Source of the DNA: Candidatus Omnitrophota bacterium
GTDB lineage: Bacteria > Omnitrophota > Gorgyraeia > Pluralincolimonadales > Pluralincolimonadaceae
NCBI GenBank assembly: GCA_028716565.1
Contig: JAQUPL010000001.1
Span: 147,545-211,544, forward strand
Direction of reading: 5' to 3'
Length of the DNA stretch: 64,000 bases
Shown: in pieces, positions 1,399 through 53,599 of the stretch
How the letters are laid out: every line of letters begins with the position of its first letter
Numbering within the stretch: position 1 is the stretch's first letter
Notes under the pieces: model-generated
The model's input: only the letters and a program-made list of their open reading frames with translations
Told to the model about the DNA's origin: nothing
Databases searched by the model: none
Made by a program: the position numbers and the translations under genes

Positions 1399-2757
1399 AT
1401 GTTCTCAAAAATATTGATAGCCAACCGCGGAGAAGTCGCCCTGAGGATCATAAGGGCGTGCAAGGACATGGGGATAAAGTCCGTCGCCGTATATTCCGAG
1501 GCGGATAAAGACTCCCTCCATGTGAAATTTGCCGACGAGGCCATCTGCATAGGCGCCGCGGCGCCGGCAGGCAGCTACCTTAACATACCCAGCATTATAA
1601 GCGCCGCCGAGATATCCGATGTCGAGGCGATACATCCCGGATACGGGTTCCTTGCCGAGAACGCCCATTTCGCCGAAGTCTGCGAATCGTGCAATATTAA
1701 ATTTATAGGCCCTACGCCTGAAGCCATGCGCCTCATGGGCGACAAGATGGCGGCAAAAGATACCATGAGGAAGGCCGGGCTTCCTATCATACCCGGCAGT
1801 TTGTCGGTAGTAAAAGAGAAGGAAGAGGCCCTCAGGGTCGCGCATAAATTGCAGTACCCGGTCATCGTAAAGGCGGCCGCAGGCGGCGGCGGGCGCGGGA
1901 TGCGTATCGCGCACAACGACGTCAGGCTTGTCAGCGTCCTGATGACCTGCCAGACCGAGGCCGAGGCCGCGTTCGGTAATCCGGCGGTATATATCGAGAA
2001 GTATGTTCCCAACCCGAGGCACGTGGAGTTCCAGATAGTCGCGGACAAGTACGGCCACGTCGTACATCTCGGCGAGAGGGACTGCACGATACAAAGGCGC
2101 CACCAGAAACTGCTGGAGGAATCCCCTTCACCGGCGGTCGATCCCAAACTTAGGAAGAAGATGGGAGATGCCGCGGTAAAAGGCGCGAAGGCGGGGAATT
2201 ACACGAATGTCGGCACGATAGAGTTCCTCCTGGATGAAAACGATAATTATTATTTCATGGAGATGAATACGAGGATCCAGGTCGAGCATCCGGTCACCGA
2301 GATGGTCACCGGAATAGACCTCGTAAAGGAGCAGATAAAGATCGCGGCCGGAGAGAGGCTGTCCTACAGCCAGGATGACATCAAATTCAGCGGCCACGCT
2401 ATCGAATGCCGCATAAACGCAGAGGACGCGGACAATAACTTCATGCCATGCCCGGGTAAAGTCACGTTCTTCCATGCGCCGGGCGGGCCGGGCGTGCGCG
2501 TAGATTCGCACGTCTACCAGGGATATACGATACCGCCTTTTTACGATTCGATGATAGCCAAGCTTATAACTTACGGCAAGAACAGGTCCGAGGCTATACA
2601 GGTGATGCAGAGGGCCCTCTCGGAATTCACCATCGAGCCCATCAAGACGACGATAGATTTCCACAAGCGCCTCACCGCAGATCCCGCGTTCCTTCGCGGT
2701 GAGGTCACGACCGAATTCATAGAAAAGAAGATGTCAGAAAAGGAGGCCGCACAATGA
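1399..2757 (+). CDS. accC: biotin carboxylase subunit of acetyl-CoA carboxylase
   Basis: 452 aa. [21 protein letters not shown] start and ATP-grasp motifs (GGGGRGMR) typical of AccC. Confidence 0.95.
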
Positions 2758-3368
2758 AAATATTGAACAGGTTAACGATGATGTTTTTCCTAATAGTCTT
2801 TATCACGATCGGTCTCTTCCTTATTGCCGTATCCATAAGGTCTGTGGAGAGCGAACCGATAATGAACGCACTCGACTCGATCAACGCCTCTACGACTTTG
2901 CGGATCGGGGTGGGAGCGGTCGGTTTTCTTCTCATCGTGATATCATGGGCGAGCTACCAGTTTACGGTCGCGCGCATCCAGAGGCAGAAGAACATAGCGT
3001 TCAACAATCCCGACGGCCAGGTTTCCATCTCGCTTTCGGCGATAGAGGAGTTCATAAGGAAGATAGGTTCGTCCCTTCCCGAGGTCAAGGAGATGAAGTC
3101 GGATTGCATAGCGACCAAGAAGGGCATCGATATATCCACCAAGGTCATATTCTGGGCCGACGCGAACATCCCCGAGTCCACGGAAAAGATACAGGGCCTC
3201 GTGAAGGCGAAGATACAGGAGATGCTCGGCATAGACGAGCCGATCATAATAAAGATACACGTCACAAAGATAGCGACCCGTCCCGACGCCAAACCCGCGG
3301 CAAAAAAGGGCAAGGACAAGGATGATGTGAGCATTCCGTTCGGCGGGTTCGATTACAGGAACGAATAA
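2754..3368 (+). CDS. membrane-anchored Asp23/Gls24-like (DUF322-type) envelope stress protein (tentative)
   Basis: N-terminal TM segments followed by an Asp23-like core ([17 protein letters not shown]...[37 protein letters not shown]). Start overlaps the accC stop. Confidence 0.4.
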
Positions 3369-3393
3369 AAAAGACAAAAGGAGGAAGCACCGG

Positions 3394-4419
3394 ATGAAAA
3401 GGTTGGGAATACTTACCGGCGGCGGGGACTGTCCGGGTTTGAACCCCGTCATCAGGGCGGCGGTCAAGAAGGCTTATGCGGAAGGATATGAAGTCATAGG
3501 TTTTAAGAACGGCTGGAAAGGCCTCATAGAAGGGGATGTGATACCTCTGGACCTGCGTTCGGTATCCGGGATCCTCCCGAAAGGCGGCACGATATTAGGC
3601 ACTTCAAGGACCAACCCCTACAAGCAGGAAGGAGCTGTCCAGAAAGTAAAAGATAATTTCAAAAAGTTCGAGCTCGACGCCCTGATAGCCATAGGCGGCG
3701 AGGACACTCTCGGCGTCGCAAATAAACTTGTGAAAGAAGGCCTGAAGGCTGTGGGCGTAGCGAAGACTATAGATAATGACCTCAACGAGACCGATTTTAC
3801 GTTCGGTTTCGATACCGCGGTGAATATAGTAATGGAATGCATCGACAGGCTGCACACTACGGCGGAGAGCCACAACAGGATCATGATTGCTGAAGTCATG
3901 GGCCGCCATGCCGGCTGGATCGCGATGTACGCGGGTATCGCCGGGGGCGCGGACGTGATATTGATCCCTGAGATCCCGATCAATATCGACGATGTATGCG
4001 CTATAATCAAGAAACGCCACGAGCGCGGCAAGAATTTCTCGATCGTCGTAGTCGCGGAAGGCGCAAAGTTCGGGGATGAGGAGATACTCCAGACCGAGAA
4101 GCTCGATGAGTTCGGGCATGTAAGGCTGGGAGGGATCGGCCAGCGCCTCGGCGAATTAATAGAGAAGAAGACGGGTTTTGAGACGAGGGTTACCGTGCTC
4201 GGGCACATCCAGCGCGGCGGTTCTCCTACGGCGTTTGACAGGGTCCTGGGCACCAGGTTTGGCGTCAAGGCCGTTGAACTTATCATGCAGGGAAAATTCG
4301 GTTATATGGCCAGCCTCCAGGGAAACAAAATAAAGGAAGTCCCGATCGATAAAGCCGTCGGCACCTTAAAGACGGTCGACAAGGATTTCTACGATATGGC
4401 AAAGACATTCTTCGGTTGA
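3394..4419 (+). CDS. pfk: 6-phosphofructokinase, probably pyrophosphate-dependent type
   Basis: 341 aa. GILTGGGDCPGLN, then IGGEDTLG (D at the G104-equivalent position) and GVAKTIDND (K at the G124-equivalent), as in PPi-PFKs. RBS GGAGGA upstream. Confidence 0.85.
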   Translation: MKRLGILTGGGDCPGLNPVIRAAVKKAYAEGYEVIGFKNGWKGLIEGDVIPLDLRSVSGILPKGGTILGTSRTNPYKQEGAVQKVKDNFKKFELDALIAIGGEDTLGVANKLVKEGLKAVGVAKTIDNDLNETDFTFGFDTAVNIVMECIDRLHTTAESHNRIMIAEVMGRHAGWIAMYAGIAGGADVILIPEIPINIDDVCAIIKKRHERGKNFSIVVVAEGAKFGDEEILQTEKLDEFGHVRLGGIGQRLGELIEKKTGFETRVTVLGHIQRGGSPTAFDRVLGTRFGVKAVELIMQGKFGYMASLQGNKIKEVPIDKAVGTLKTVDKDFYDMAKTFFG

Positions 4420-4988
4420 AAATGAAAAAAAAGATAGAAAGCATACTGGAAGAGAGCATCTCCGTAAAGAAAGACCTCCTGGTGTCGCAGGCCGGCGCTA
4501 TCGAAAAAGCCGCCGACGCTGTCATCAAGTCGCTGAAGTCCGGCGGCAAGGTCATAATCTTCGGCAACGGCGGAAGCGCCGCGGACAGCCAGCATATGGC
4601 GGCTGAACTCGTCGGGAAATTCCTGAAGGAGAGGAAGGGGGTCCCGGCGGTAGCCCTGACCACCAACACCTCGATAATTACGGCGATAGCCAACGACTAT
4701 TCTTATGATGAGGTGTTTTCGCGCCAACTCGACGCGATCGCGGGAAACAACGATGTGGCGGTCGGGATCTCAACGAGCGGGAACGCGAAGAACGTCATCA
4801 AGGCGGTAGAACTCGCAAATAAAAAGGGCCTGGTTACGGTCGCGCTCACGGGACGCGACGGAGGCGGTCTGGCCAGGATAGCGAATATCCCAATAATAGT
4901 CCCTTCCGGGTCTACTCCGAGGATCCAGGAAGCCCACGTCACGGTTGTCCATATCCTCTGCCAGTTGGCAGAAGAGGCGTTGTTCTAA
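4416..4988 (+). CDS. gmhA: D-sedoheptulose-7-phosphate isomerase (SIS domain)
   Basis: 190 aa. GGKVIIFGNGGSAADSQHMAAELVGKF is near-identical to the GmhA consensus. Confidence 0.8.
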   Translation: MKMKKKIESILEESISVKKDLLVSQAGAIEKAADAVIKSLKSGGKVIIFGNGGSAADSQHMAAELVGKFLKERKGVPAVALTTNTSIITAIANDYSYDEVFSRQLDAIAGNNDVAVGISTSGNAKNVIKAVELANKKGLVTVALTGRDGGGLARIANIPIIVPSGSTPRIQEAHVTVVHILCQLAEEALF

Positions 4989-39280: not shown

Positions 39281-39354
39281 GAAACCATAAGACAATTAAT
39301 CGGGTCAGAAATATTAATTTATTTCTGAAGGAGAAGTCAATTTGGATGGTCGGG

Positions 39355-39392
39355 CCGCCATCTGTGAAAAAACAGATGGCGGTTTTTGTTTT
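39355..39392 (+). terminator. intrinsic terminator between the promoter above and hflK
   Basis: CCGCCATCTGT-GAAAAA-ACAGATGGCGG hairpin + TTTTTGTTTT. 30 nt upstream of the hflK ATG. Confidence 0.55.
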
Positions 39393-41622: not shown

Positions 41623-42195
41623 ATGAAAAAATCAACTATTATAATAATCGCGATCCTGCTAACGTTCCCTGCGGCGGCAAGCGCCAATCTGCTGGTCAAC
41701 CCGGGATTTGAGACGGGTAATTTCAGCGGATGGGCTCCTTACGCTTTCGGCTCTGAGAATGTATCAAGCGCAAACCCTTACACGGGCCAGTATGAGGCAA
41801 GAATAACTAACTACGGATGGATAACCCAAACCGTCAATTTAACGCCGAATGCCACCTACAAGCTGTCTTCATACCTGTATATGCCGCAAGACGGCGGTGA
41901 CGCGTCGATCTCCATAACTTTTTATAACTCTACCGGCACGACTTCCTTCCAGCAGGAGCGTTCCTGGCAGCGGATCCCGGGAGACCAGCAATACGATAAG
42001 ATAGAAACGGACTGGCTGGTTGCCCCCAGTTATACCGCTTATGCCAAAGTGCGCTGCTCAGTCGCTTCAGCCGGCAGCTATATTGACTTCGATGACGTCA
42101 GCTTGGATGTTGTGCCGGAACCGAGCTCGCTGGTTCTTCTGTTTACCGGCCTTACAGGATTATTCGGTTTACTGACCCGCCCCAAAGGTGTATGA
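41623..42195 (+). CDS. PEP-CTERM sorting-signal protein with CBM-like N-terminal domain
   Basis: 190 aa. Signal peptide. C-terminus VVPEPSSLVLLFTGLTGLFGLLTRPKG is a classic PEP-CTERM (PEP, TM, basic tail). Confidence 0.6.
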   Translation: MKKSTIIIIAILLTFPAAASANLLVNPGFETGNFSGWAPYAFGSENVSSANPYTGQYEARITNYGWITQTVNLTPNATYKLSSYLYMPQDGGDASISITFYNSTGTTSFQQERSWQRIPGDQQYDKIETDWLVAPSYTAYAKVRCSVASAGSYIDFDDVSLDVVPEPSSLVLLFTGLTGLFGLLTRPKGV

Positions 42196-42228
42196 TATTC
42201 CCGTACTCCAATTAACTGGAGGAAGGGG

Positions 42229-42468
42229 ATGCCTTTTCTGCTGATTTTATTATTGGTTCCTTTAGTCATCTTAATAGCCGGCTTAATATTATTCATTAAG
42301 CCGGCTTCTTGCATTAAATGGCAGATTAAATTCTACAGCAAGATCAACTGGCGAATGGAACCCATCAATATGGAAATGGAGATCAGGAATACGAAGATCA
42401 TGGGATTATTCCTGATTGGCGCGGCTATAGCAACGGTCATCTATCCATTAATTAGGGGAAATAAATGA
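42229..42468 (+). CDS. small hypothetical membrane protein
   Basis: 79 aa, two TM helices. Stop overlaps the next start. Confidence 0.3.
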   Translation: MPFLLILLLVPLVILIAGLILFIKPASCIKWQIKFYSKINWRMEPINMEMEIRNTKIMGLFLIGAAIATVIYPLIRGNK

Positions 42469-44759
42469 AAAAGATCATTTTGATAACGTTAATTTTATTA
42501 TTTTCATTTACAGGCCCTTTGATTCCTGCAAAGGAAGAGAATCTCGCTGATTCTACGCCTCCTTCCGCACCCGTAATCAATACTGATAAGAGAACAAAAT
42601 CACTAGATATGATCGTTGCGCACTGGAAAAGCGAAGACCCTGAATCAGGGATAGCCGAGTATCAGTACGCAATAGGGACGGTCCCGGAAGGCACCGATGT
42701 TCTATACTGGACCTCAAACGGGCCGAACGAAGATTGTTATGTCTATCAGGTAAGATTGGAGAAAAATAAAAATTACTATATCTCTGTGGTCGCAAAAAAT
42801 AAAGCGGGCTTAAAAAGCAAAGTAGCCACAGCCGGTCCGATAAAAGCTGCAAAAGAAGTATATATATCGGTTGAATGGCCAAGGTTTAATTCAATTATAA
42901 GGAATAATGAAACAAGGATAAGTGGCACTGCCGAAGGTGTTGATACTGTAAATATTAACGGCAGGGAATTCGCAGTTAATGATGACGAGTCATTTAAAGG
43001 CCCGACTTTAGTAGCACCCGGTTATGCCGCAAGAAAAGGGATCGATGCAAAAGACCCGAATTATATTATTATGAATTTTCCCGGGAAGACAGATATTAAA
43101 GTATCCGCCGAAGGAGAGGAATCGTTTACAACGTGTTACTATTATCAAGCTTATTTGAAGAGTTCTACAACTTCGGAGAGTTATGCTTATTCTGATGAGT
43201 TCCAATCCTGGAATATGGATGCCTTGGCAAAATCACCGTTTGCCGATTGGAAAGACTATCAATATCCATCAAGGATCAGGACTAAGAAAAATATGTCGGA
43301 AGCCTGGACGCCCTGGCAATATTGCGATTACTACTTTAAGTGGTGGAGATATTATCATAGCGCAATATCATATCCCGGGAAACCGGGCAGATGCACTTCC
43401 TCAATGACGATTCATACACTACCGGCCAAAAAAGGAGAGATTGAGCCGATGATATTGCTATTCCAAGAGTGCATGATATCACCTTATGACTTTAAAGGAA
43501 GGCGTCCTGATATTTCAGAATATAAGATGAATGGCAGACAATTGAAGTGGTTTTACGGTGATGCAAATAAATTGCCCAACTGCGCTTATATCATCCTGGA
43601 TAAGTATGTTCCGGATACCGATATCGAGCTTAAGGTCGAAGCTCCTGTTTTGAAGACCGATACTAAAGGGAATCCAACCGAATTACAGACATTTGCGTGC
43701 CGGTTCATAGATGTATTTGAAATGGAACTCGTACGCGAAACCCCGTTTAACAGCGGAAATTATAGCGTTGTGCAGACTATACCGATTTTCACCCCGGATA
43801 CAGGAGAAGGGCGAGGGTTGCCTTTGGGCGTGATTAACATGCCTTTTTTAAAGCTTAACCTTGATAAGGAATTATCTGATTCGCAGGTTGACCACTTAAA
43901 TGCTGAATTGAGAATAGCTGACAAAGTCACGAAATATACCTTAACGGAAACGTCACCCAATTCGCAGGTGTTTACGGACGAATCTAAGGACTTCGTTATC
44001 AAATTTGAGCCTTTAGTAAAAACTAGCCCAAGCGAACAAGATGATATTGTATGTTTTTTAACCTCAAAGAAAAATAACATAAATGACCAGGTTTTCAATC
44101 TTAGAGAAACCGCCTCGGATTCACTATGTTTTGAGGACGTAAAAGTGTTCATTACGGTCTGGTTTAAAGGAGAATTAAGCGACCAGCAAAAAGATATGAT
44201 GACAATCCAATTCACGAAAGGCATGATGGCTGGCGACCAGGAGCTTACGGAAACGGGCGAAAACTCGTTGGAATTTACGAACAAAGACGGCGATCTTACG
44301 GTGCGGCTTAACAACTATAAGGGTAAATTTAGTGGTGCGCTTGATGTGACTGCCCCGAACAAGGGCTATATGGACCTAAAAAGCCCAAGGCTTATTCTTG
44401 AGAGAGTCGACCCATCAAAATACTGTTTTACAAATGAAAATTTCGGCAACGGCACTAATGTTACCCAAGAAGATCCCGGAATATCCGGCGAGGGTATATT
44501 CAGGGCCAGGATAAGAGGATTGCACGATCTCAATAAATATTCTTTAAATCGGCTGGTAATCGTGATTACAGTTGATGGAGTTTCAAAGAGTTTAAAATTA
44601 ACAAAACACACGGATGGATCGTACATTACCGGAAATCTGCTATTAGTTCTGAAAGATCAAAAGGGGGAAAGGGACTATAAAGGAGTAACCGTATTCCACA
44701 CAGATGGCAAAAAGGGTGTAGGGGCTATTTCAACAAAATTTATGGAAGTAAACGAATAA
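42465..44759 (+). CDS. large secreted protein of unknown function (N-terminal FN3/Ig-like module)
   Basis: 764 aa. Signal peptide, then PSAPVINTD...WKSEDPESGIAEYQYAIGT...module. Remainder has no recognisable motif. Confidence 0.5.
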   Translation: MKKIILITLILLFSFTGPLIPAKEENLADSTPPSAPVINTDKRTKSLDMIVAHWKSEDPESGIAEYQYAIGTVPEGTDVLYWTSNGPNEDCYVYQVRLEKNKNYYISVVAKNKAGLKSKVATAGPIKAAKEVYISVEWPRFNSIIRNNETRISGTAEGVDTVNINGREFAVNDDESFKGPTLVAPGYAARKGIDAKDPNYIIMNFPGKTDIKVSAEGEESFTTCYYYQAYLKSSTTSESYAYSDEFQSWNMDALAKSPFADWKDYQYPSRIRTKKNMSEAWTPWQYCDYYFKWWRYYHSAISYPGKPGRCTSSMTIHTLPAKKGEIEPMILLFQECMISPYDFKGRRPDISEYKMNGRQLKWFYGDANKLPNCAYIILDKYVPDTDIELKVEAPVLKTDTKGNPTELQTFACRFIDVFEMELVRETPFNSGNYSVVQTIPIFTPDTGEGRGLPLGVINMPFLKLNLDKELSDSQVDHLNAELRIADKVTKYTLTETSPNSQVFTDESKDFVIKFEPLVKTSPSEQDDIVCFLTSKKNNINDQVFNLRETASDSLCFEDVKVFITVWFKGELSDQQKDMMTIQFTKGMMAGDQELTETGENSLEFTNKDGDLTVRLNNYKGKFSGALDVTAPNKGYMDLKSPRLILERVDPSKYCFTNENFGNGTNVTQEDPGISGEGIFRARIRGLHDLNKYSLNRLVIVITVDGVSKSLKLTKHTDGSYITGNLLLVLKDQKGERDYKGVTVFHTDGKKGVGAISTKFMEVNE

Positions 44760-44858
44760 AGTCTAATAAGCCAAAGTCTGATTTCATATGCCCGCGCAGA
44801 GAAGACATACGACAAGTCGATCGATAATTACCTGCGTAACAGAAAAAGATAGAATAAT

Positions 44859-45362
44859 ATGAAAATATTAAAGATACTTCTATTTTTAGTTTTAATGTTT
44901 ATTGGGGTTTATTTCTTAATAATCAGTATCGAGGGTTTTATACCCATTTTGACCAGGCATGTTGATACAAATGGAAATGATTTAATTATACTGCTGACGA
45001 TTTGTACTTTTTTCGCGGCAATGTGTCTGATAGGTTCTATTGGAAAATTATTCTTCAGAAAATGGGCCCGCTTCCTAGTAATTGTTGATGTCGCGTTTAA
45101 TATCGCGATTGCATTTTTTCTTTCCGGATTTACTGTAATAATTCAAACTGGAGTGGATACTGCCTACAGCGATTCTGTCGGCATCATTAGATACTGGGGT
45201 TTTCCAATTCATTATTGTTCGAAGGCTCCTGGTTTAGCTTGGGCTGAGTATGATCCTATGCGGTTTTTATTGAATTCATTTGTTTGGTTCATCTTTCTTA
45301 TGGCGTTTTGGTTTTATCGGAGAAAAATAGGACAGAAATCTAAAGAAGCAAGGCCTGAATGA
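44859..45362 (+). CDS. hypothetical polytopic membrane protein
   Basis: 167 aa, 4 predicted TM helices. Confidence 0.4.
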   Translation: MKILKILLFLVLMFIGVYFLIISIEGFIPILTRHVDTNGNDLIILLTICTFFAAMCLIGSIGKLFFRKWARFLVIVDVAFNIAIAFFLSGFTVIIQTGVDTAYSDSVGIIRYWGFPIHYCSKAPGLAWAEYDPMRFLLNSFVWFIFLMAFWFYRRKIGQKSKEARPE

Positions 45363-45688
45363 GGATCTGGGATATAGCGCCAAGAAAATTATGCCGCAAC
45401 CATCTCCTGGGCGAGCACAGGGAACTTCACGCCATCTGGTCTGTCCTGACACGCAAAAAGAAAGGGTATTCCCGTCATCCGGAGACCTTAAGGTGGAAGG
45501 GCAGGTTAAAGGCGCTGTATTCAAGGCACAATAAGCTCATAGCGGAGTTTAAAAGGCGGGGTTACAGGCATTACAGCCCTCTTGATTCGAGGCTGGCAAT
45601 AGGGAAGGGGAGGCAAACGCAATTCGTCAATTCGGTCAGTGAACAGGCTCAAATTTTAGGAAGGAAACACTGCGGCTGTAAGATATAA
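45359..45688 (+). CDS. pyrimidine-dimer DNA glycosylase-like protein (T4 endonuclease V / Pyr_excise family, short form)
   Basis: 109 aa. RNHLLGEHRELHAIWSV aligns with T4 endoV ADQHLMAEYRELPRVFG (catalytic Glu region). Confidence 0.5.
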   Translation: MRIWDIAPRKLCRNHLLGEHRELHAIWSVLTRKKKGYSRHPETLRWKGRLKALYSRHNKLIAEFKRRGYRHYSPLDSRLAIGKGRQTQFVNSVSEQAQILGRKHCGCKI

Positions 45689-45704
45689 AAGGGGACAGTT
45701 CATA

Positions 45705-47384
45705 ATGAAAAAAGTTAATGGTTTTTTAGTATTTATTACGATTATATTGTTAATTTTCCCTTCTAAAGTATCATTTTCTGTTACTGAGGAACAAATAAAA
45801 ACTTATGCTCCGAAATGCATAGAAGTGTTGAAAAGCGAAACAACTTCTGCTGAAGAAAAAAAGGAAGCAGCCACAAAACTTCGGTACTATGTAGATAAAT
45901 CTATAACGAAGCAACTAATAGAGCTTTTGAAAGCCAAGGATCCCATGTCAAGATATACAGCAGTACGATATTTGGACCTCACAAAGGATCCTTTAGCTAT
46001 ACCCGCATTAGTGGATACATTAAAGGATAAAGACGATGGAGTTAGGCGACTTGCAGCATCGGCATTACAAGGTTACTCGGGCAAAGAAGAAAATGCCCCG
46101 GCGTTTAATTCAAAGATGATTTTACGAATAACTCAATCATTACATGATCAAGATGCCAAGGTGAGAAGGTCGGTCCTATTGATATTAGCGTCTCTGAAAG
46201 ATCAGTCGGCGGTTCCGTCTGCTGTAAAGGCTTTGGGTGACCCGGAACCTGAGGTAAGAAAGGAAGCTGTTAATATATTGATAAAGTTAGATGTCTACAA
46301 GGCAGCTCCCTATCTTATGAGGGTTCTGAAAGATAAAAATGAGGATGTGCAACGAGCCGCTATATGCGGTTTAATATGTTCCAAGAACACTTCTATTGTA
46401 CCCAATCTCATAGACTTAACAAAGGATCAAGATGCTAACATAAGAAGACAGGCTATATTTTGCTTACAATTTCTGAATGATAAAAGAGCTATACCTGTTT
46501 TTATTAAATCTTTGGACGATCAAGATAAAGAAGTGAGGCGACGGGCGGTGTATGCTTTAGGCGCAAAGGGATTTGAAGGAACAGAGGTGATCGATGGTTT
46601 AATCAAAGCATTGGGCGATGAATCTGATGAGGTCCGTGAAGCAGCCGCTTTTGGTTTAGGGCATAAAGAGGGAGCTAAAAAAGCCATCCCCGTACTTATG
46701 GATGCTTACAAAAAAGGATCTAACAGATCAAGGATATCAAGCAGTAGCACACTTATTAAGCTATGTGACAAAACTGATATTCCCTTTTTTGTCGGGCTTC
46801 TCAAAAGCGACAATCCTCATCTTAAATCTCAGACATGTTACATATTGGAAAATATCGGCGATAAATCAGCAATTGCTCCTTTGCTCGAGGTTTATAAAAA
46901 AGATGCCGATGAAAATGTTAAATTAAGCGCTTTTCACGCTCTCATAACAATTGATGATTTTCCAGAAATGCGTCCTATCTGTTTAGAGGCATTAAAAATG
47001 TCTAAGCCTCAGTTTAAATGTTATGCATTATATGGGCTAATGAAATTGAAAGACGAGTCTGTATATGATGATGTTATTAAGTATTCAAAAGATGAAAATA
47101 GAGAAGTTCGTAAAGCAGCCATTGTATTTATTGGCTCGTCAACAAATAAAAATGCGTTGAAAGATATTGAACCCTTCTTGGAAGATGCGGATTTGGATGT
47201 TAGGGAAGAAACTGTTGTTTTAATTGTAAAGAAATTGGGCAAAGAATCGATCCCTATATTGGAGCGCCATGTGGATCGAACAAGCGATTCCTCTGACCCT
47301 GTAAAGGTCACCCTGAATGCTTTGAAAGCTGGGAAAGAGCCCGACGCTGCGATAATAGAAATGTTTTATACTTTTCATGAATAA
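45705..47384 (+). CDS. HEAT-repeat (PBS-lyase-like) protein, exported/anchored
   Basis: 559 aa. N-terminal signal/anchor, then about 12 repeats of the AIPALVDTLKDKDDGVRRLAASAL type. Confidence 0.65.
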   Translation: MKKVNGFLVFITIILLIFPSKVSFSVTEEQIKTYAPKCIEVLKSETTSAEEKKEAATKLRYYVDKSITKQLIELLKAKDPMSRYTAVRYLDLTKDPLAIPALVDTLKDKDDGVRRLAASALQGYSGKEENAPAFNSKMILRITQSLHDQDAKVRRSVLLILASLKDQSAVPSAVKALGDPEPEVRKEAVNILIKLDVYKAAPYLMRVLKDKNEDVQRAAICGLICSKNTSIVPNLIDLTKDQDANIRRQAIFCLQFLNDKRAIPVFIKSLDDQDKEVRRRAVYALGAKGFEGTEVIDGLIKALGDESDEVREAAAFGLGHKEGAKKAIPVLMDAYKKGSNRSRISSSSTLIKLCDKTDIPFFVGLLKSDNPHLKSQTCYILENIGDKSAIAPLLEVYKKDADENVKLSAFHALITIDDFPEMRPICLEALKMSKPQFKCYALYGLMKLKDESVYDDVIKYSKDENREVRKAAIVFIGSSTNKNALKDIEPFLEDADLDVREETVVLIVKKLGKESIPILERHVDRTSDSSDPVKVTLNALKAGKEPDAAIIEMFYTFHE

Positions 47385-47421
47385 AAAGTAAGGTAAATAG
47401 AGGTCGCGTCGAAAGGTAGCA

Positions 47422-48077
47422 ATGAAAAAGGTAATCACCTACGTAGCGCTCACATTCCTTCTTAGCTCCGCCGGCTATTACCTGATAATCAATAGTAAAG
47501 CTTTAGGCCTGAGCCCGGCTTTGCTGATGTTATACCTTATGTGGTGTCCCGGGATCTCGGGCATGGCCACCTCGCTCATATATGAAAAGAGCCTCTCCGG
47601 CATCGGCTGGAAACCGGGCAAACTGCGCTGGCTGGGATTGGGGTATCTCCTGCCTATCTGCTACGCGGCCGCCGCTTATGGGATCATCTGGCTCTCCGGC
47701 TTCGGTGGCGTCAACCATGATTACCGTATTAACGCGTTTATACTCATCGTGTTGGGCCCGGCAATAAGCGTGGTGTATGCGGCAGGGGAGGAGATAGGCT
47801 GGCGCGGGTCACGATAACCGCGATGACCTTCGCTATCGGATGGCTAAGGCTGAAATCAGGCAGTGTCTGGCCGGCGATCCTGATGCACGCAAGCCATAAC
47901 TTTTACATCCAGTGGTTATTCGACCCGCTTACGACCGAAACAGGCCCGATGTCCAACTATATGATCGGCGAATCCGGTATCGTTTTAACAGTGATTTTTA
48001 TCGGGCTGGCGTTGGTTTTTTGGAGTCAAAGAGGGCGGCTTCCGAACTTCGAAAATAGAACCGGAGTTGTGCAATAA
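47422..48077 (+). pseudogene. CPBP (CAAX/Abi-type) intramembrane metalloprotease, frameshifted
   Basis: Motif 1 EEIGWRG at the end of ORF 47422-47817, then a stop. Motif 3 HASHN appears in the next ORF (47823-48077) in a different frame. Confidence 0.5.
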
Positions 48078-48102
48078 ACGTGAAAGGAATCTTGATTAGA
48101 AA

Positions 48103-48528
48103 ATGAAGTGGGATATAGCTCAAAAGAAGGTCAGCTCATTTCTTAGAAGCGGCTATGATGAACTAAAAAAGCAAAAAGTGGTAAATATCAATCATTCTTT
48201 TCCTACCAAACCCGGAACTTACATATTTATAAAAGAACGTAAAATCATATACGCAGGTGAAGCTTCTGAATTAAAAAGAAGAATGTACAGACACAAAAAA
48301 AGAACAGAGGTAAGTACTTTAAGAAAATCTATTGGTTTCGTCGTTTTTAAACAAGCAAAATCAGGAATGTTTAGCAAACAAATCGAAAATAGGATAAATA
48401 ACTATATTGCAAATCTTAAAATTAAATATATAGAAGTTCAATATGGTAGAAAAGAATTGGAAGAGTATATTATTAATATAGAAAAACCAATTCACAACAA
48501 AGTATTTAAAGGACCGAGATCTGTTTAA
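48103..48528 (+). CDS. GIY-YIG-like nuclease domain protein (tentative)
   Basis: 141 aa, AT-rich. PGTYIFIKERKIIYAGEASELKRRMYRH resembles GIY...YIG...R...H. Downstream Glu/Asn are present. Confidence 0.45.
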   Translation: MKWDIAQKKVSSFLRSGYDELKKQKVVNINHSFPTKPGTYIFIKERKIIYAGEASELKRRMYRHKKRTEVSTLRKSIGFVVFKQAKSGMFSKQIENRINNYIANLKIKYIEVQYGRKELEEYIINIEKPIHNKVFKGPRSV

Positions 48529-48577
48529 TTGGTACCACCCTAATTTTGTGCGTTGAAAGAACAGGGGTCATAAAATA

Positions 48578-48636
48578 ATCATAACCCTTTGCATTTATAA
48601 CTGTTGCAGGGGGTTTTTGTTAGGAGTAAAATAAGA
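48578..48636 (+). repeat. about 58-bp terminator-like repeat element, copy 2
   Basis: AATCATAACCCTTTGCATTTATAACTGTTGCAGGGGGTTTTTGTTAGGAGTAAAATAAG. Hairpin with G-U pairs + T-run. Confidence 0.7.
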
Positions 48637-48726
48637 TTAGTAGCGTGCTCCTAGGCTGAGTACCTCCATAGGCACACTAATAAGGTGTAGATTTTTTGTC
48701 TTAGTAGTATAAGGAATCCCAAATAA

Positions 48727-50535
48727 ATGATTTATTCAATAAAAATTAAAAATTTTAAAAGCATAGGCAAAGAAGAACAAGTTTTAGATAATTTAGGTTC
48801 AGTCAATGTTTTTATAGGAGAGAATAATTCTGGTAAGACTGCAGGATTGGAAATTCTTTGGATTTTTGGAGAAATATTATTGGAGAATTTAGAAACAACC
48901 GGACGCATTAATTCTATCGGGTCTCTCATAGATCAAGAGTCATCTTTCCCAGCCGGCGATATTTTGGATAAAATTAAGACCATATCATCTAATATTGATA
49001 AAATGACTGATTTTGTTCATCAAAATGAAGGTAATATCGAATTAGAAATTGTATTTAATGCAAACGACTCATTTCGTGAGCATGTTAAAGATTTATCAAC
49101 GTCGAAGCGTAATCTTCAAGAAGAAAGGGTGCTAGAAGAAAAGCTAATAAGAGACGTAAAAGATATAGATTTATTAAAATTAAGGTTTATTTTAGATTTT
49201 AATCGACATGTTTTTAGAATAATTCAGGTTGGATGGGGAAATATAAATTTAGTATGCATTGAAAATAATACTTTAAAATATGTAAGTTTGGATGATTATT
49301 TAGCAGATTCGCACTTTCTAATTGAAAATGCGAATCTAAATCGTAATAATAGATTTTTTAATAATGTAATTGTTCCTCAAATACGTGAATTTCTTTCTTA
49401 TCTTCGACGCACCTATTACATTCATTCAAAAAGAAAAATAGACGAGATTATAAAGGTAGATGATGGACGTCAAGGAATAAAAGGTTCAAATCTTAAAAAA
49501 ATAATGTTTGACTTATTTCATGACGGGGACCAGCGACGTAGAGAAAAATACTTTAAAATATTAGAAGTATTTAAAAAAATTGCAGGTAAACAGATTAGAA
49601 GGGATCCTTATAAAGATAGTAGAAAAGTGGATTTAGTATTTGAAGAGGGGAATATAAGCGTAAATATTGATAATTCAGGCTATGGCTATAATCATCTATT
49701 AAATCTTGTATATAATATTATTATTAGCGATGCGAATACGATTTTAATTGATGAACCAGAAATTTCGCTTCATCCTCAGGCACAGCTGAGATTTATTGAA
49801 TTTATTAAAGAAGTCGCAAATAAAGAAAAGAAGCAATTTTTTATTTCGACTCACTCGCCATATTTCATCAGTTTAGAAGCAATAGATAAAGTATTTAAAT
49901 TTACAAAATCTGATACAATAACTCACGTTACAAGAATCAACAATGAAAAGACTGTACAAGCAATAAAAGACAAGAAGGAGGGTATTTTTAATTTTAGACA
50001 TAGAGAATTATTTTTCATGAATAAAGTAATATTTGTTGAGGGGAGTGAGGACCTAGTTGCTTTGCCGCAGTATTTTACTGAGAGCCTATCCATTTCTAGA
50101 GAATGCCTGTATCAATTAGGGGGAATTAATGATGAGAAAATAGCTCTCTTCTCGTCATTTTGTAACGACCTAGGTATAAAATATGCTTTTATATTAGATT
50201 TTGATTATCTTAGAAAGGATACAAACAAGAAGAGGTTTATCCAGGCGCTAAAAAAGATTGAAGAAAAACCCAAATCTACAAATCGGCTTTTAACGTTACT
50301 CGATAAAAATGGACTTAAAGGTAAAAATAAAGAAATGGTAAAAGATATTTGGTTAAAAGATTGGGCTAGTTATTGGAATAAAAAAACGTTGCAAAATCTT
50401 TTGAAAAAATACAAGGCCAATGGAATATTTATTATGCCATTTTACGATGTTAAAATATTAAAAGAAACAACGGCTACAGATTTCGCTTTTGAGGCTAATA
50501 AAATTATTAGTGAAGTTAATGAATACCTTTTGTAG
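48727..50535 (+). CDS. OLD-family ATP-dependent nuclease (ABC-type ATPase + TOPRIM; GajA-like or class-1 OLD)
   Basis: 602 aa, about 30% GC by eye. Walker A GENNSGKT, Walker B/D-loop ILIDEPEISLHP, H-loop STHSP. C-terminal TOPRIM VIFVEGSED and FILDFD. Confidence 0.75.
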   Translation: MIYSIKIKNFKSIGKEEQVLDNLGSVNVFIGENNSGKTAGLEILWIFGEILLENLETTGRINSIGSLIDQESSFPAGDILDKIKTISSNIDKMTDFVHQNEGNIELEIVFNANDSFREHVKDLSTSKRNLQEERVLEEKLIRDVKDIDLLKLRFILDFNRHVFRIIQVGWGNINLVCIENNTLKYVSLDDYLADSHFLIENANLNRNNRFFNNVIVPQIREFLSYLRRTYYIHSKRKIDEIIKVDDGRQGIKGSNLKKIMFDLFHDGDQRRREKYFKILEVFKKIAGKQIRRDPYKDSRKVDLVFEEGNISVNIDNSGYGYNHLLNLVYNIIISDANTILIDEPEISLHPQAQLRFIEFIKEVANKEKKQFFISTHSPYFISLEAIDKVFKFTKSDTITHVTRINNEKTVQAIKDKKEGIFNFRHRELFFMNKVIFVEGSEDLVALPQYFTESLSISRECLYQLGGINDEKIALFSSFCNDLGIKYAFILDFDYLRKDTNKKRFIQALKKIEEKPKSTNRLLTLLDKNGLKGKNKEMVKDIWLKDWASYWNKKTLQNLLKKYKANGIFIMPFYDVKILKETTATDFAFEANKIISEVNEYLL

Positions 50536-50665
50536 CTATTTTTATTATAGAGAATTCGAAATAACTAAAAATAAAATAGGGGAAGTGTCCAAAGGGATAG
50601 GAAATAATGCACAAAATTATCGGACAAAAAGCATATCAACCGAATAATTAAATAAAGGGGGTAAC

Positions 50666-51853
50666 ATGGATCTAATCTCTTGCTTGGAAGATAAAAGAAT
50701 AAATGCGACAAATCTTGCCTTTGAGATCTCAATAGGAAACTATCTTGAGATTGCGTCCTCTATTTTAGACAGTAACATATTTCAGCGCAGACGGGTAAAA
50801 TCCTCATCAACAATTTATGCGCTTTTAAAAGACGATTTAAAGTTGGGGTGCGTTATTCCTCCTCTTGTCCTGGCGTTTGAGGAAGAAATTGATGCCGGCG
50901 ATTTTGTTAAAGAAGCTAAAGCAAAACCAGAATTTTTGGTGAATTTTATGAAAAAGAATATCAAGCATCTTTTGATTTTAGATGGTCTACAGCGCACCTA
51001 TACTCTATTAGAATTACGCGATGAATTGATGAAACAATTCGATGAGGAATTATTAAAAAAAATCCTTAATAGTAATATAAGAATAGAATTATACATTAGC
51101 GTAAATCGTATTGGCATCCTTTACCGAATGTTAACTTTGAATACAGGGCAAACTCCAATGAGCTTACGGCATCAAATAGAGATTCTTTATTCTGATTATT
51201 TGAATGCTGAAGTGGCAGGACTAAGGTTGATATCCGAAGTTGAGGAGCAAAGAGCAACTCATCTTACTGATTATAAATTTAGAGATGTTATGGACGGATT
51301 TAATTCGTATCTGGAACGTAACGAGTTGCCAATTGATAAATTTGAGCTTCTGGAAAATATTAAAGGGTTAGAAAAACTAGCGAAGGAAAATCAAAACCAA
51401 GATATCTTTCGTGGATTTTTACTGTCATTCCATGTATTTCTCATGAAGATGGTTAGTATTGGTGATAATTGGAAGCTTAACCCAGAAGTAGCAAAAAGTT
51501 TTGGAGGCAATCCATTTGGAGTTGATGTTGAATCAATTTTTAAGAAAAATCAAACGTTATCTGCTTTTGGGGCCGCGGTAGGTAGATTGAAGGATTTCGA
51601 TGTTATTGATAATTTTGAGTCCTTAAATCCTATCATCGCCAATATAAAATTTCAGACCAATCCAGACGAAGGGTATAACAAGCTTCTTAAGGTACTTGAT
51701 GACATTCGCTTAAAATCTAAGAAAATTGGTAATGCTCAACGTATGTATTTTCAATACTTCTTTCGTGAATTATTTAATAGCAATACAGATTCTTATGGCG
51801 TAATAGAAGCAGCTGTTGATAATGCTTATCAGAAATACTTAAGCCAAATTTAA
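50666..51853 (+). CDS. DUF262 / ParB-like nuclease-domain protein
   Basis: 395 aa. N-terminal FQRRRV (pFQRxxVW-type) and LILDGLQRTYTL (DGQQR motif). No DUF1524/HNH tail seen. Confidence 0.6.
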   Translation: MDLISCLEDKRINATNLAFEISIGNYLEIASSILDSNIFQRRRVKSSSTIYALLKDDLKLGCVIPPLVLAFEEEIDAGDFVKEAKAKPEFLVNFMKKNIKHLLILDGLQRTYTLLELRDELMKQFDEELLKKILNSNIRIELYISVNRIGILYRMLTLNTGQTPMSLRHQIEILYSDYLNAEVAGLRLISEVEEQRATHLTDYKFRDVMDGFNSYLERNELPIDKFELLENIKGLEKLAKENQNQDIFRGFLLSFHVFLMKMVSIGDNWKLNPEVAKSFGGNPFGVDVESIFKKNQTLSAFGAAVGRLKDFDVIDNFESLNPIIANIKFQTNPDEGYNKLLKVLDDIRLKSKKIGNAQRMYFQYFFRELFNSNTDSYGVIEAAVDNAYQKYLSQI

Positions 51854-51855
51854 TC

Positions 51856-52944
51856 ATGACATTAACAATAGGAGATATGGAAGGGGAAAAAGTTAATTTA
51901 GGATTACCAAACTTTTTGCCTGGTGAAAAAGTTTTTTCTCTAGAGTTTAATGGAGAAGCAATAAATGTGCCATATTTATTGCAGGTGGAGGAACCATATT
52001 CCGCCGATGCGTTTGAAATGCATTTGTTTATTAATGCTGCAACACATGAAAATGATATTTTTCGTGTTTATGAAGTGGAAAGTGGCGAAATAATCGGATG
52101 GTTGTTTCCTGTTCAGGCGCTTCTTTCAGTTGAGCACGATTATGCCAACGATGAATATTTTCTACCTTGTGCTTTTGCTGCTTTTCAAAAGTTATTACAG
52201 GGCGAAGGCTTACCCGCAAAAACCCCGATTTTAAAAACGGAACAACTATCAATTTTAGATTTTTATAATGACAGCGATATCGTTTTATTATTAGCAAAAA
52301 ATCAAATTAGTAAAATAAAAGATTTTAATATCAAATTTTATCTGCCAGATCTTTTTAAGTATGGTTATCGGTATAAAGATAAAATAGAAACTGTGAATAA
52401 ACGAGTCAGTAAATTTTATGAAGAGTTAGATAAAAATATCAAACTACGTAAGATGTCAAGCAGGCTAATTGCTAATACGTATATATATGACTTATTTACT
52501 GATATATTAGATGATAACGATGTCATTCATGCGTTTTTATCTCTGTATCAAGTTATTGAAATAGTTATATTTGACATTTTTAAAGATGAACTGGCGAAGT
52601 GTCTAGATGATTACTCTAATCTTTCTGAAAATGACTATGGAGGCTTTTTCGATATAGGAGACAAGTTAAATTCTATCAAATCAGAAAAGAATCGAGTTGC
52701 AAATTTATTTAATTATACAAACGACACGTTGGAATTACGAGATCTATGCAATAATCTCTTGCAGCAATTAAGTTTAAAAACTGAAGACAACGCAGCGAAA
52801 GCGCTTTATTCTGTTAGGAGTAACTTGGTTCATGCATATCGATTATTTTCTAAGCCGCAAAAGATAATTTTAGAGGAAGTGGTAGAAGAATTTATTGGTG
52901 TTATCATCGATCTTGTTATTTGTTATAAAAAGGACATAAAATAA
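51856..52944 (+). CDS. hypothetical protein with C-terminal HEPN-like Rx4H motif (Abi-like, tentative)
   Basis: 362 aa. LYSVRSNLVHAYRLF resembles the Abi_2/AbiD-F-type lRNxxAHxxRlf HEPN motif. Starts 3 nt after the DUF262 gene's stop. Confidence 0.35.
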   Translation: MTLTIGDMEGEKVNLGLPNFLPGEKVFSLEFNGEAINVPYLLQVEEPYSADAFEMHLFINAATHENDIFRVYEVESGEIIGWLFPVQALLSVEHDYANDEYFLPCAFAAFQKLLQGEGLPAKTPILKTEQLSILDFYNDSDIVLLLAKNQISKIKDFNIKFYLPDLFKYGYRYKDKIETVNKRVSKFYEELDKNIKLRKMSSRLIANTYIYDLFTDILDDNDVIHAFLSLYQVIEIVIFDIFKDELAKCLDDYSNLSENDYGGFFDIGDKLNSIKSEKNRVANLFNYTNDTLELRDLCNNLLQQLSLKTEDNAAKALYSVRSNLVHAYRLFSKPQKIILEEVVEEFIGVIIDLVICYKKDIK

Positions 52945-53014
52945 AAAGCGTGTTTAAAATGGACAGGTTGTAAGTAACGCGCCTCAAGGTCCTAAATAAT
53001 CCCGCCTAAAAATC

Positions 53015-53043
53015 TTGACACCCACACAAATGTGTGGTATATT
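53015..53043 (+). promoter_or_regulatory. lexA promoter with palindromic operator candidate in the spacer
   Basis: TTGACA 53015-53020, perfect palindrome CCACACAAATGTGTGG 53022-53037, TATATT 53038-53043. ATG of lexA at 53051, so essentially leaderless. Confidence 0.5.
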
Positions 53044-53050
53044 CCTGCCT

Positions 53051-53599
53051 ATGAAACCCCAAGTAGAATTGACCGCCAAGCAAGAGAAAGTCCTGAAATT
53101 TATCCGTGAGAGAGTGGGGGAGAACCTGCCTCCGACCATAAGGGAGATAGCAGGGGAGATGGGTTTTGCTTCCACAGGAACGGTTAGGGACTATCTTAAG
53201 GCGCTCCAAAGAAAAGGTTATCTCAAACGTGAAAACAACAAGTCCCGGGGCATAGCGTTAATAGGCAGTATCGCGGCCGGGGAGCCGAAATTGGCCTATG
53301 AAGATACCGAGGGCTATGTCGAGATCGCCCGGGAGAACACCTTTGCCTTGAAGGTCAAAGGTGAGAGCATGATAGACGCGGGCATTATGGACGGCGACAT
53401 AGCAGTTATCAGGAAACAGAAGACGGCCGACAACGGCGACATCATCGCCGCCTTACTGGATAATAACGAAGTCACCTTAAAAAGATTGAAGACCGGCGCC
53501 GGCAAACCGTTCCTGGAGGCGGCGAACAGGAAGTATCCTCCGATACGTAAAGATTTCACCATCATAGGAAAGCTCGTCAACATTGTAAGAAAGTATTAA
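53051..53599 (+). CDS. lexA: LexA repressor (S24 peptidase)
   Basis: Start at MKPQVELTAKQEKVLKFI (typical LexA N-terminus). The ORF-track TTG start at 53015 is rejected because it is the -35 hexamer. Ala-Gly cleavage site IAAGEP; catalytic GESM Ser and LKRLK Lys. Confidence 0.85.
   Translation: MKPQVELTAKQEKVLKFIRERVGENLPPTIREIAGEMGFASTGTVRDYLKALQRKGYLKRENNKSRGIALIGSIAAGEPKLAYEDTEGYVEIARENTFALKVKGESMIDAGIMDGDIAVIRKQKTADNGDIIAALLDNNEVTLKRLKTGAGKPFLEAANRKYPPIRKDFTIIGKLVNIVRKY

Follow-up and report, generated by a model that had tools for sequence, protein, structure and literature searches.

Does an OLD-family nuclease gene that resembles gajA but has no gajB helicase gene beside it act on its own, or do the genes downstream of it take the place of the helicase? 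This question is raised by the open reading frame at 48727-50535 in the 64-kb stretch of DNA analysed here (the window). The original prediction offered two alternatives, a stand-alone class 1 OLD or a system in which the downstream DUF262 and HEPN-like proteins substitute for GajB. OLD classes are defined by gene context: class 1 is a single gene, class 2 (GajA) has the UvrD-like GajB immediately downstream, class 3 is linked to a retron reverse transcriptase (RT) and ncRNA, and class 4 is the split AriA/AriB (PMC10568477, PMC12392090, PMC7049728). We assigned the class from gene context together with search scores. From the sequence evidence we consider it probable (about 85%) that the gene encodes a stand-alone class 1 OLD anti-phage nuclease in a horizontally acquired islet, and that the Dazbog pair next to it is independent. 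The features of the locus are as follows.

48103..48528, plus strand: GIY-YIG nuclease gene (141 aa, 29% GC; Pfam GIY_YIG_2, 1e-10)
48571..48726, plus strand: 5' non-coding region of the OLD gene, conserved at 91% in the syntenic locus L005 along with the gene (blastn)
48727..50535, plus strand: OLD-family nuclease gene, ATG start, 602 aa; open reading frame confirmed at exactly these positions
OLD protein, residues 1 to about 400: ABC ATPase with an inserted dimerisation-type domain; residues about 430-602: TOPRIM
50580..50658, no strand: junction of two modules, 79 bp from the end of L005 homology (50579) to the beginning of L014 homology (50659) (blastn)
50666..51853, plus strand: DzbA (DUF262/ParB-like), PADLOC DzbA 5.1e-137 over the full length; weak Pfam GmrSD_N match
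51856..52944, plus strand: DzbB, PADLOC DzbB 6.3e-57 over the full length; starts 2 bp after DzbA

The OLD protein and its islet

The protein had been described as an ATPase-TOPRIM fusion of about 600 aa, and this was confirmed. Pfam assigned AAA_15 to residues 1-381 (3e-27) and OLD-like_TOPRIM (PF20469) to residues 429-493 (3e-7). The ATPase part contains a Walker A motif (G31-x4-G36-K37-T), a Walker B motif (D342-E343) and an H-loop (H376), and the catalytic residues of the TOPRIM part are E438, D442, G466 and D491-x-D493. All of these show little or no variation when the nine closest relatives or a broader set of 48 relatives are aligned, and G31..K37, D342-E343 and H376 of the ATPase are invariant in the 48 sequences. 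An AlphaFold2 model built from the 48-sequence alignment reached a mean pLDDT of 86 and a pTM of 0.87. Among solved structures, Foldseek matched this model to GajA (8SM3, 5.6e-19), TsOLD (6P74, 3.1e-18) and the OLD protein of retron Eco8 (3e-16). The conserved catalytic residues and the matching fold therefore indicate a genuine OLD-family ATPase-nuclease that is apparently active. The more specific label of a "GajA layout" did not stand, as the fusion is common to OLD classes 1 to 3.

In the model a helical insertion of about 70 aa (residues 498-564) lies between TOPRIM strands beta3 and beta4, so that the DxD motif is separated from beta4 by about 80 residues compared to 47 in TsOLD. This predicted insertion is reminiscent of the TOPRIM elaborations of class 2. 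Only about 30 residues follow beta4, and unlike GajA the protein has no long C-terminal helical domain at this position.

The OLD gene belongs to an islet of 4.9 kb that consists of the GIY-YIG, OLD, DzbA and DzbB genes and is located between a CAAX-protease gene and lexA. The four genes have a GC content of 29-34% (29% for the OLD gene) compared to about 49% in the window and 49-54% in the immediate flanks. Judged by this composition, the islet is foreign DNA that was acquired horizontally. The non-coding region upstream of the OLD gene presumably holds its own promoter and ribosome binding site. A scan of the locus for promoters and terminators gave background levels only and was uninformative.

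Some features of the surrounding DNA were noted besides. No tRNA gene was found flanking the islet in a tRNA scan, and the repeats around it are short and AT-rich only, probably chance matches. This probably also applies to a 14-nt inverted repeat (13/14 complementary) in AT-rich DNA with one arm in each intergenic region around the OLD gene (48541-48554 and 50606-50619). The CAAX/CPBP-type protease gene is split into two open reading frames in different frames (47422-47817 and 47823-48077), which points to a frameshift, from either a pseudogene or an assembly error. Further upstream, the GC content is likewise lowered (39-43%) in the region 42000-47400, which may also have been acquired. It encodes a 764-aa protein to which Pfam gave no match, and in addition a membrane protein, a HEAT-repeat protein and a pyrimidine-dimer glycosylase. 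A match to the nhaA-I riboswitch of Rfam (39302-39363, 38.2 bits at a threshold of 37) is located upstream of two Band7/SPFH genes. On the other side of the islet, a strong sigma-70-like promoter (TTGACA-17-TATATT, 11/12) lies in window 53015-53050 just upstream of the lexA start, which is likely the ATG at about 53051. Between its -35 and -10 hexamers the perfect 16-bp palindrome CCACACAAATGTGTGG (53022-53037) is a candidate LexA operator. Downstream of lexA a 103-aa open reading frame is followed by dinB.

The downstream Dazbog pair and the module boundary

The DUF262 and HEPN-like neighbours named in the original prediction are indeed present. No Pfam domain was found in DzbB. Nevertheless, all 70 DzbB homologues aligned have its residues Y318/R321/H326 (RSNLVH, Rx4H motif; 100% conservation), which makes the label "HEPN-like" reasonable and suggests that the effector of Dazbog is a HEPN-type RNase. 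Based on their full-length matches, DzbA and DzbB are a complete and already known two-gene Dazbog defence system. Dazbog was described as a working two-gene anti-phage system whose first gene carries a DUF262 domain; it turns toxic on expression of a phage cytosine methylase, and the published work suggests methylated phage DNA as its trigger (10.1101/2022.08.27.505566; PMC10952713). The system contains no OLD protein or other ATPase, and the OLD gene of the window is thus a neighbour outside Dazbog. The spacing is 2 bp between DzbA and DzbB compared to 130 bp between the OLD gene and DzbA.

More than 2500 relatives of DzbA exist. We surveyed 82 other DzbA loci with 44-73% identity from genome and metagenome contigs; a search of genome contigs alone yielded two loci. 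DzbB adjoins DzbA in 74 of the 82 loci, including all 72 with room for it, and the pair in the window is arranged in the same way. A search with the OLD family profile found no OLD-family gene in the DNA available for the 82 loci, of which 45 extend 2 kb or more upstream. The single weak profile match, in L089, is an unrelated gene on the opposite strand, the PtuA ATPase of Septu. The nearest Dazbog (L014, 73%) adjoins restriction-modification genes and a transposase, and the DNA of the cassette matches it by blastn over 50659-52931 only, which corresponds to just the two genes.

The OLD clade is rare. An indexed search of 5.8 billion proteins revealed nine members, after which the score falls from 659 to 158 bits; the source organism is annotated as a Candidatus Omnitrophica MAG. 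When 1.84 billion cluster representatives were searched exhaustively with an HMM, eight near-full-length members of the clade scored above 600 bits, compared to 46,564 OLD-like ATPases at E<=1e-3 in the same set. The eight are 36-89% identical to one another and keep the catalytic residues. In plasmid and phage collections we found distant OLD matches only (<31% identity, with no more than 38% of the query covered) and no close relative. The genes next to clade members vary: Shedu in L005, a PLD/DrmC-like gene in L004, fatty-acid and aminotransferase (housekeeping) genes in L001-3, a type III Res-like gene in L006, DUF3800 and an integrase in L007 and a histidine kinase in L008. Neither a constant neighbour nor a UvrD-type helicase was found across seven clade contexts. 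Co-occurrence of close homologues with DUF262 genes had been proposed as a check, and six of the seven other clade contexts have no DUF262 gene.

Among these contexts, L005 is the counterpart of the window locus in the chromosome of a related genome and encodes an OLD protein with 89% identity. By blastn, L005 1-106 corresponds to window 47936-48041, where the CAAX-protease gene has its 3' end, and L005 122-2132 corresponds to window 48571-50579 at 91%. The homology then ends at 50579, 44 bp past the OLD stop codon. After the OLD gene, L005 encodes at 2179-4958 SduA (Shedu, 8e-82), a PD-T4-2_A/NsnA-like DUF262 protein (3e-68) and a RiboL-PSP HEPN fragment, with the Shedu gene separating the OLD gene from the DUF262 pair. 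A tblastn search found no DzbA in L005. Since the L005 homology breaks at 50579 and the L014 match is confined to 50659-52931, the OLD gene and Dazbog were inherited separately. They are separate cassettes that meet in the 79-bp junction, and the OLD gene is inherited as a single-gene module. The presence of Dazbog in the window and of Shedu with a PD-T4-2-like pair in L005 represents cassette swapping at a defence hotspot.

In both the window and L005, whose OLD genes are the most closely related pair, DUF262 and HEPN-type genes lie downstream as a pair, and these pairs belong to different families. Strictly speaking, a loose functional link between the OLD gene and such pairs is still conceivable. 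There is a slim chance that the rare OLD clade cooperates with variable downstream DUF262 and HEPN-type modules from otherwise autonomous systems in a Menshen-like manner, or that the TOPRIM insertion confers a specificity for substrate or trigger that is new for class 1 OLDs.

A slightly slimmer chance is left for a fixed three-gene system of OLD, DzbA and DzbB, in which the Dazbog proteins replace the GajB helicase, with the DUF262 protein as sensor, the OLD-type ABC ATPase as transducer and the TOPRIM and HEPN parts as effectors. The three genes lie on one strand with no terminator predicted between OLD and dzbA, and Menshen provides a precedent in which DUF262 is combined with an OLD-type ABC ATPase and, in some variants, with a TOPRIM-fold nuclease effector (PMC12065111, PMC10952713). 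Moreover, the NsnB model matches the OLD ATPase at 2e-20, and the OLD gene of L005 likewise has a DUF262 and RiboL-PSP HEPN pair downstream. Menshen comprises NsnA (ParB-DUF262 and ParBDB), NsnB (OLD-ABC and DUF3696) and NsnC (inPIN and effector) in this order (PMC12065111). However, the two downstream proteins are full-length matches to the Dazbog models and not to NsnA or NsnC, the DUF262 protein scoring as DzbA only. The ATPase gene comes first instead of following the A-B-C order, a TOPRIM domain is present, and neither DUF3696, which is part of NsnB, nor ParBDB or inPIN was detected. The DUF262 pair in L005 belongs to a different family with Shedu intervening. DNA homology breaks within the short stretch between the two modules, and the large number of DzbA relatives stands against about nine members of the OLD clade. 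On the 82-locus survey and the module boundaries, a coupling of OLD and Dazbog was rejected. The proposed substitution of GajB by the downstream proteins was not supported, as these form a complete Dazbog pair that occurs elsewhere without an OLD gene and L005 carries other cassettes in their place.

Absence of a helicase partner and class assignment

We return to the reading of a stand-alone class 1 OLD, which depends on the absence of a partner gene. A six-frame scan of 47400-53100 revealed a single Walker A motif, which is the OLD gene's own, and Pfam found no helicase domain in any open reading frame of at least 360 aa across the 64-kb window, nor in the neighbouring open reading frames. 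The original prediction that the island has no UvrD-like helicase was thereby confirmed, and a GajB-like gene hidden just outside the gene calls, which it had named as a refuting case, was ruled out by the same scans. No RT domain was detected in the open reading frames neighbouring the OLD gene (Pfam) and no Rfam RNA family within 40-63 kb, which excludes a retron. Accordingly, the NCBIfam model retron_eff_Eco8 reached 51 bits at a cutoff of 250. PARIS was ruled out as there was no AriB or DUF4435 signal in Pfam or in the PADLOC models. The TOPRIM region matches OLD-like TOPRIM and the PADLOC Old and GajA models, with no AriB or AriAB model listed for this region in PADLOC, and AriA matches are limited to the generic ATPase part. 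The gene downstream, DzbA, has no helicase domain as it would in Gabija.

The six next-nearest relatives outside the clade (including L011, L095, L096 and L012) likewise have no UvrD-type helicase beside them, and two of them stand alone. As regards the other contexts, one gene is located between hsdS and hsdR of a type I restriction-modification operon, two follow directly after a Type ISP-like methyltransferase-nuclease and precede a PD-(D/E)XK gene, and one has a 4-bp overlap with a RecQ helicase gene. Overall, no helicase, RT or AriB partner was found at this locus or beside the 13 relatives examined. Since OLD classes are defined by context, the lack of these partners places the gene in class 1.

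The search scores point in the same direction. TsOLD (6P74) was the sole PDB match of the single OLD protein sequence (1.8e-15), and the family profile scored 9e-47 to TsOLD, 8.5e-26 to GajA and 1.4e-16 to the Eco8 OLD. The best full-length ATPase-TOPRIM model in PADLOC was the P2-type "Old" (3.8e-31), and the TOPRIM region alone scored 36.6 bits to "Old" compared to 31.8 bits to the best GajA model. By these searches the sequence affinity of the protein is highest to class 1, and the first alternative of the original prediction was thus supported by both the missing partners and the best matches. The fold search does not separate the classes, with nearly the same values for GajA and TsOLD. 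As a structural trait, class 1 TOPRIM domains do without the Insert 3 helix and C-terminal helical domain of class 2 and carry a catalytic Arg or Lys in the loop ahead of the last helix; for the latter, a conserved K/R near residue 532 is a candidate in the window protein.

The window protein shares its catalytic residues and the lack of a dedicated partner gene with characterised members of class 1 (P2 Old, TsOLD, Vc OLD and YbjD). Nevertheless, it is only about 15-25% identical to them and belongs to a tiny separate clade. It is also longer than TsOLD (528 aa) and carries the modelled helical insertion. Moreover, class 1 genes have been described as usually isolated (PMC10568477), whereas this OLD gene adjoins other defence genes.

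It is improbable that the gene represents a degenerate Gabija system, namely a class 2 GajA that recently lost gajB and is now decaying or inactive. Several likenesses to GajA are evident: many PADLOC GajA models match at about 1e-23, GajA 8SM3 is the top Foldseek match, and GajA (8SM3, 8U7I) has the same two-domain fold, a similar length and an alike spacing of the TOPRIM E...G...DxD residues (E379/G409/D432-D434 in GajA, E438/G466/D491-D493 here). Length and TOPRIM helical insertion also resemble class 2 (PMC10568477). However, neither the window gene nor its relatives have the downstream UvrD/PcrA/Rep-like GajB of Gabija, and in sequence searches the protein is closer to TsOLD and P2-type Old than to GajA. 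No gajB remnant was found in the 130-bp spacer between OLD and dzbA, nor a second Walker A motif in six frames. All eight near-full-length clade representatives keep the catalytic residues and none has a UvrD-like neighbour. Therefore, the helicase-less state is old and under selection.

The least probable reading is a two-gene system with the small upstream GIY-YIG nuclease as partner: the genes are adjacent on one strand with 29% GC each, and GIY-YIG domains are known from PD-T4-3, PD-lambda-1 and similar defence systems of a single gene (PMC10952713), but the 529-bp block 48042-48570 that holds the GIY-YIG gene is absent from L005 with its 89% identical OLD, and no other clade member has such a neighbour. 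L005 has 15 bp in place of the block, and this indel shows that the GIY-YIG gene is not an obligate partner of OLD. The gene has the appearance of a single-gene cassette that is mobile or was gained independently.

Proposed function and significance

Single-gene OLD defence is established (PMC12392090, PMC13261556, PMC10568477), and the mechanism proposed here is drawn from the characterised class 1 proteins P2 Old, TsOLD, Vc OLD and E. coli YbjD. By analogy, the domain that interrupts the ATPase would mediate homo-oligomerisation of the protein, and the ATPase would sense or license activity via ATP binding or hydrolysis. The TOPRIM site would then cut DNA by two-metal catalysis, with metal A bound by E438, D491 and D493 and metal B by D442 and an acidic residue near 572. 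The nuclease may nick or degrade 5'-3' phage DNA or replication intermediates, which would either block replication of the phage genome or kill the infected cell by abortive infection. Since DzbA-DzbB would act independently and with the methylated-DNA trigger suggested in the literature, the immunity provided by the islet would be layered rather than coupled.

The OLD gene is a divergent addition to the known class 1, located beside a known Dazbog system. Its helicase-less state is the defining trait of this class and opens no new question. In vivo phenotypes are known for P2 Old, Vc OLD and YbjD alone, and class 1 is reported in about 0.45% of genomes (PMC12392090). The locus is a clean natural case of cassette swapping, in which a fixed OLD gene is accompanied by Dazbog in one genome and by Shedu and a PD-T4-2-like pair in the other. 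Class 1 is the least understood class of OLD proteins, and a divergent and well-delimited clade from uncultured Omnitrophota-type bacteria widens its comparative and structural diversity, contributing a predicted TOPRIM helical insertion for structural work.
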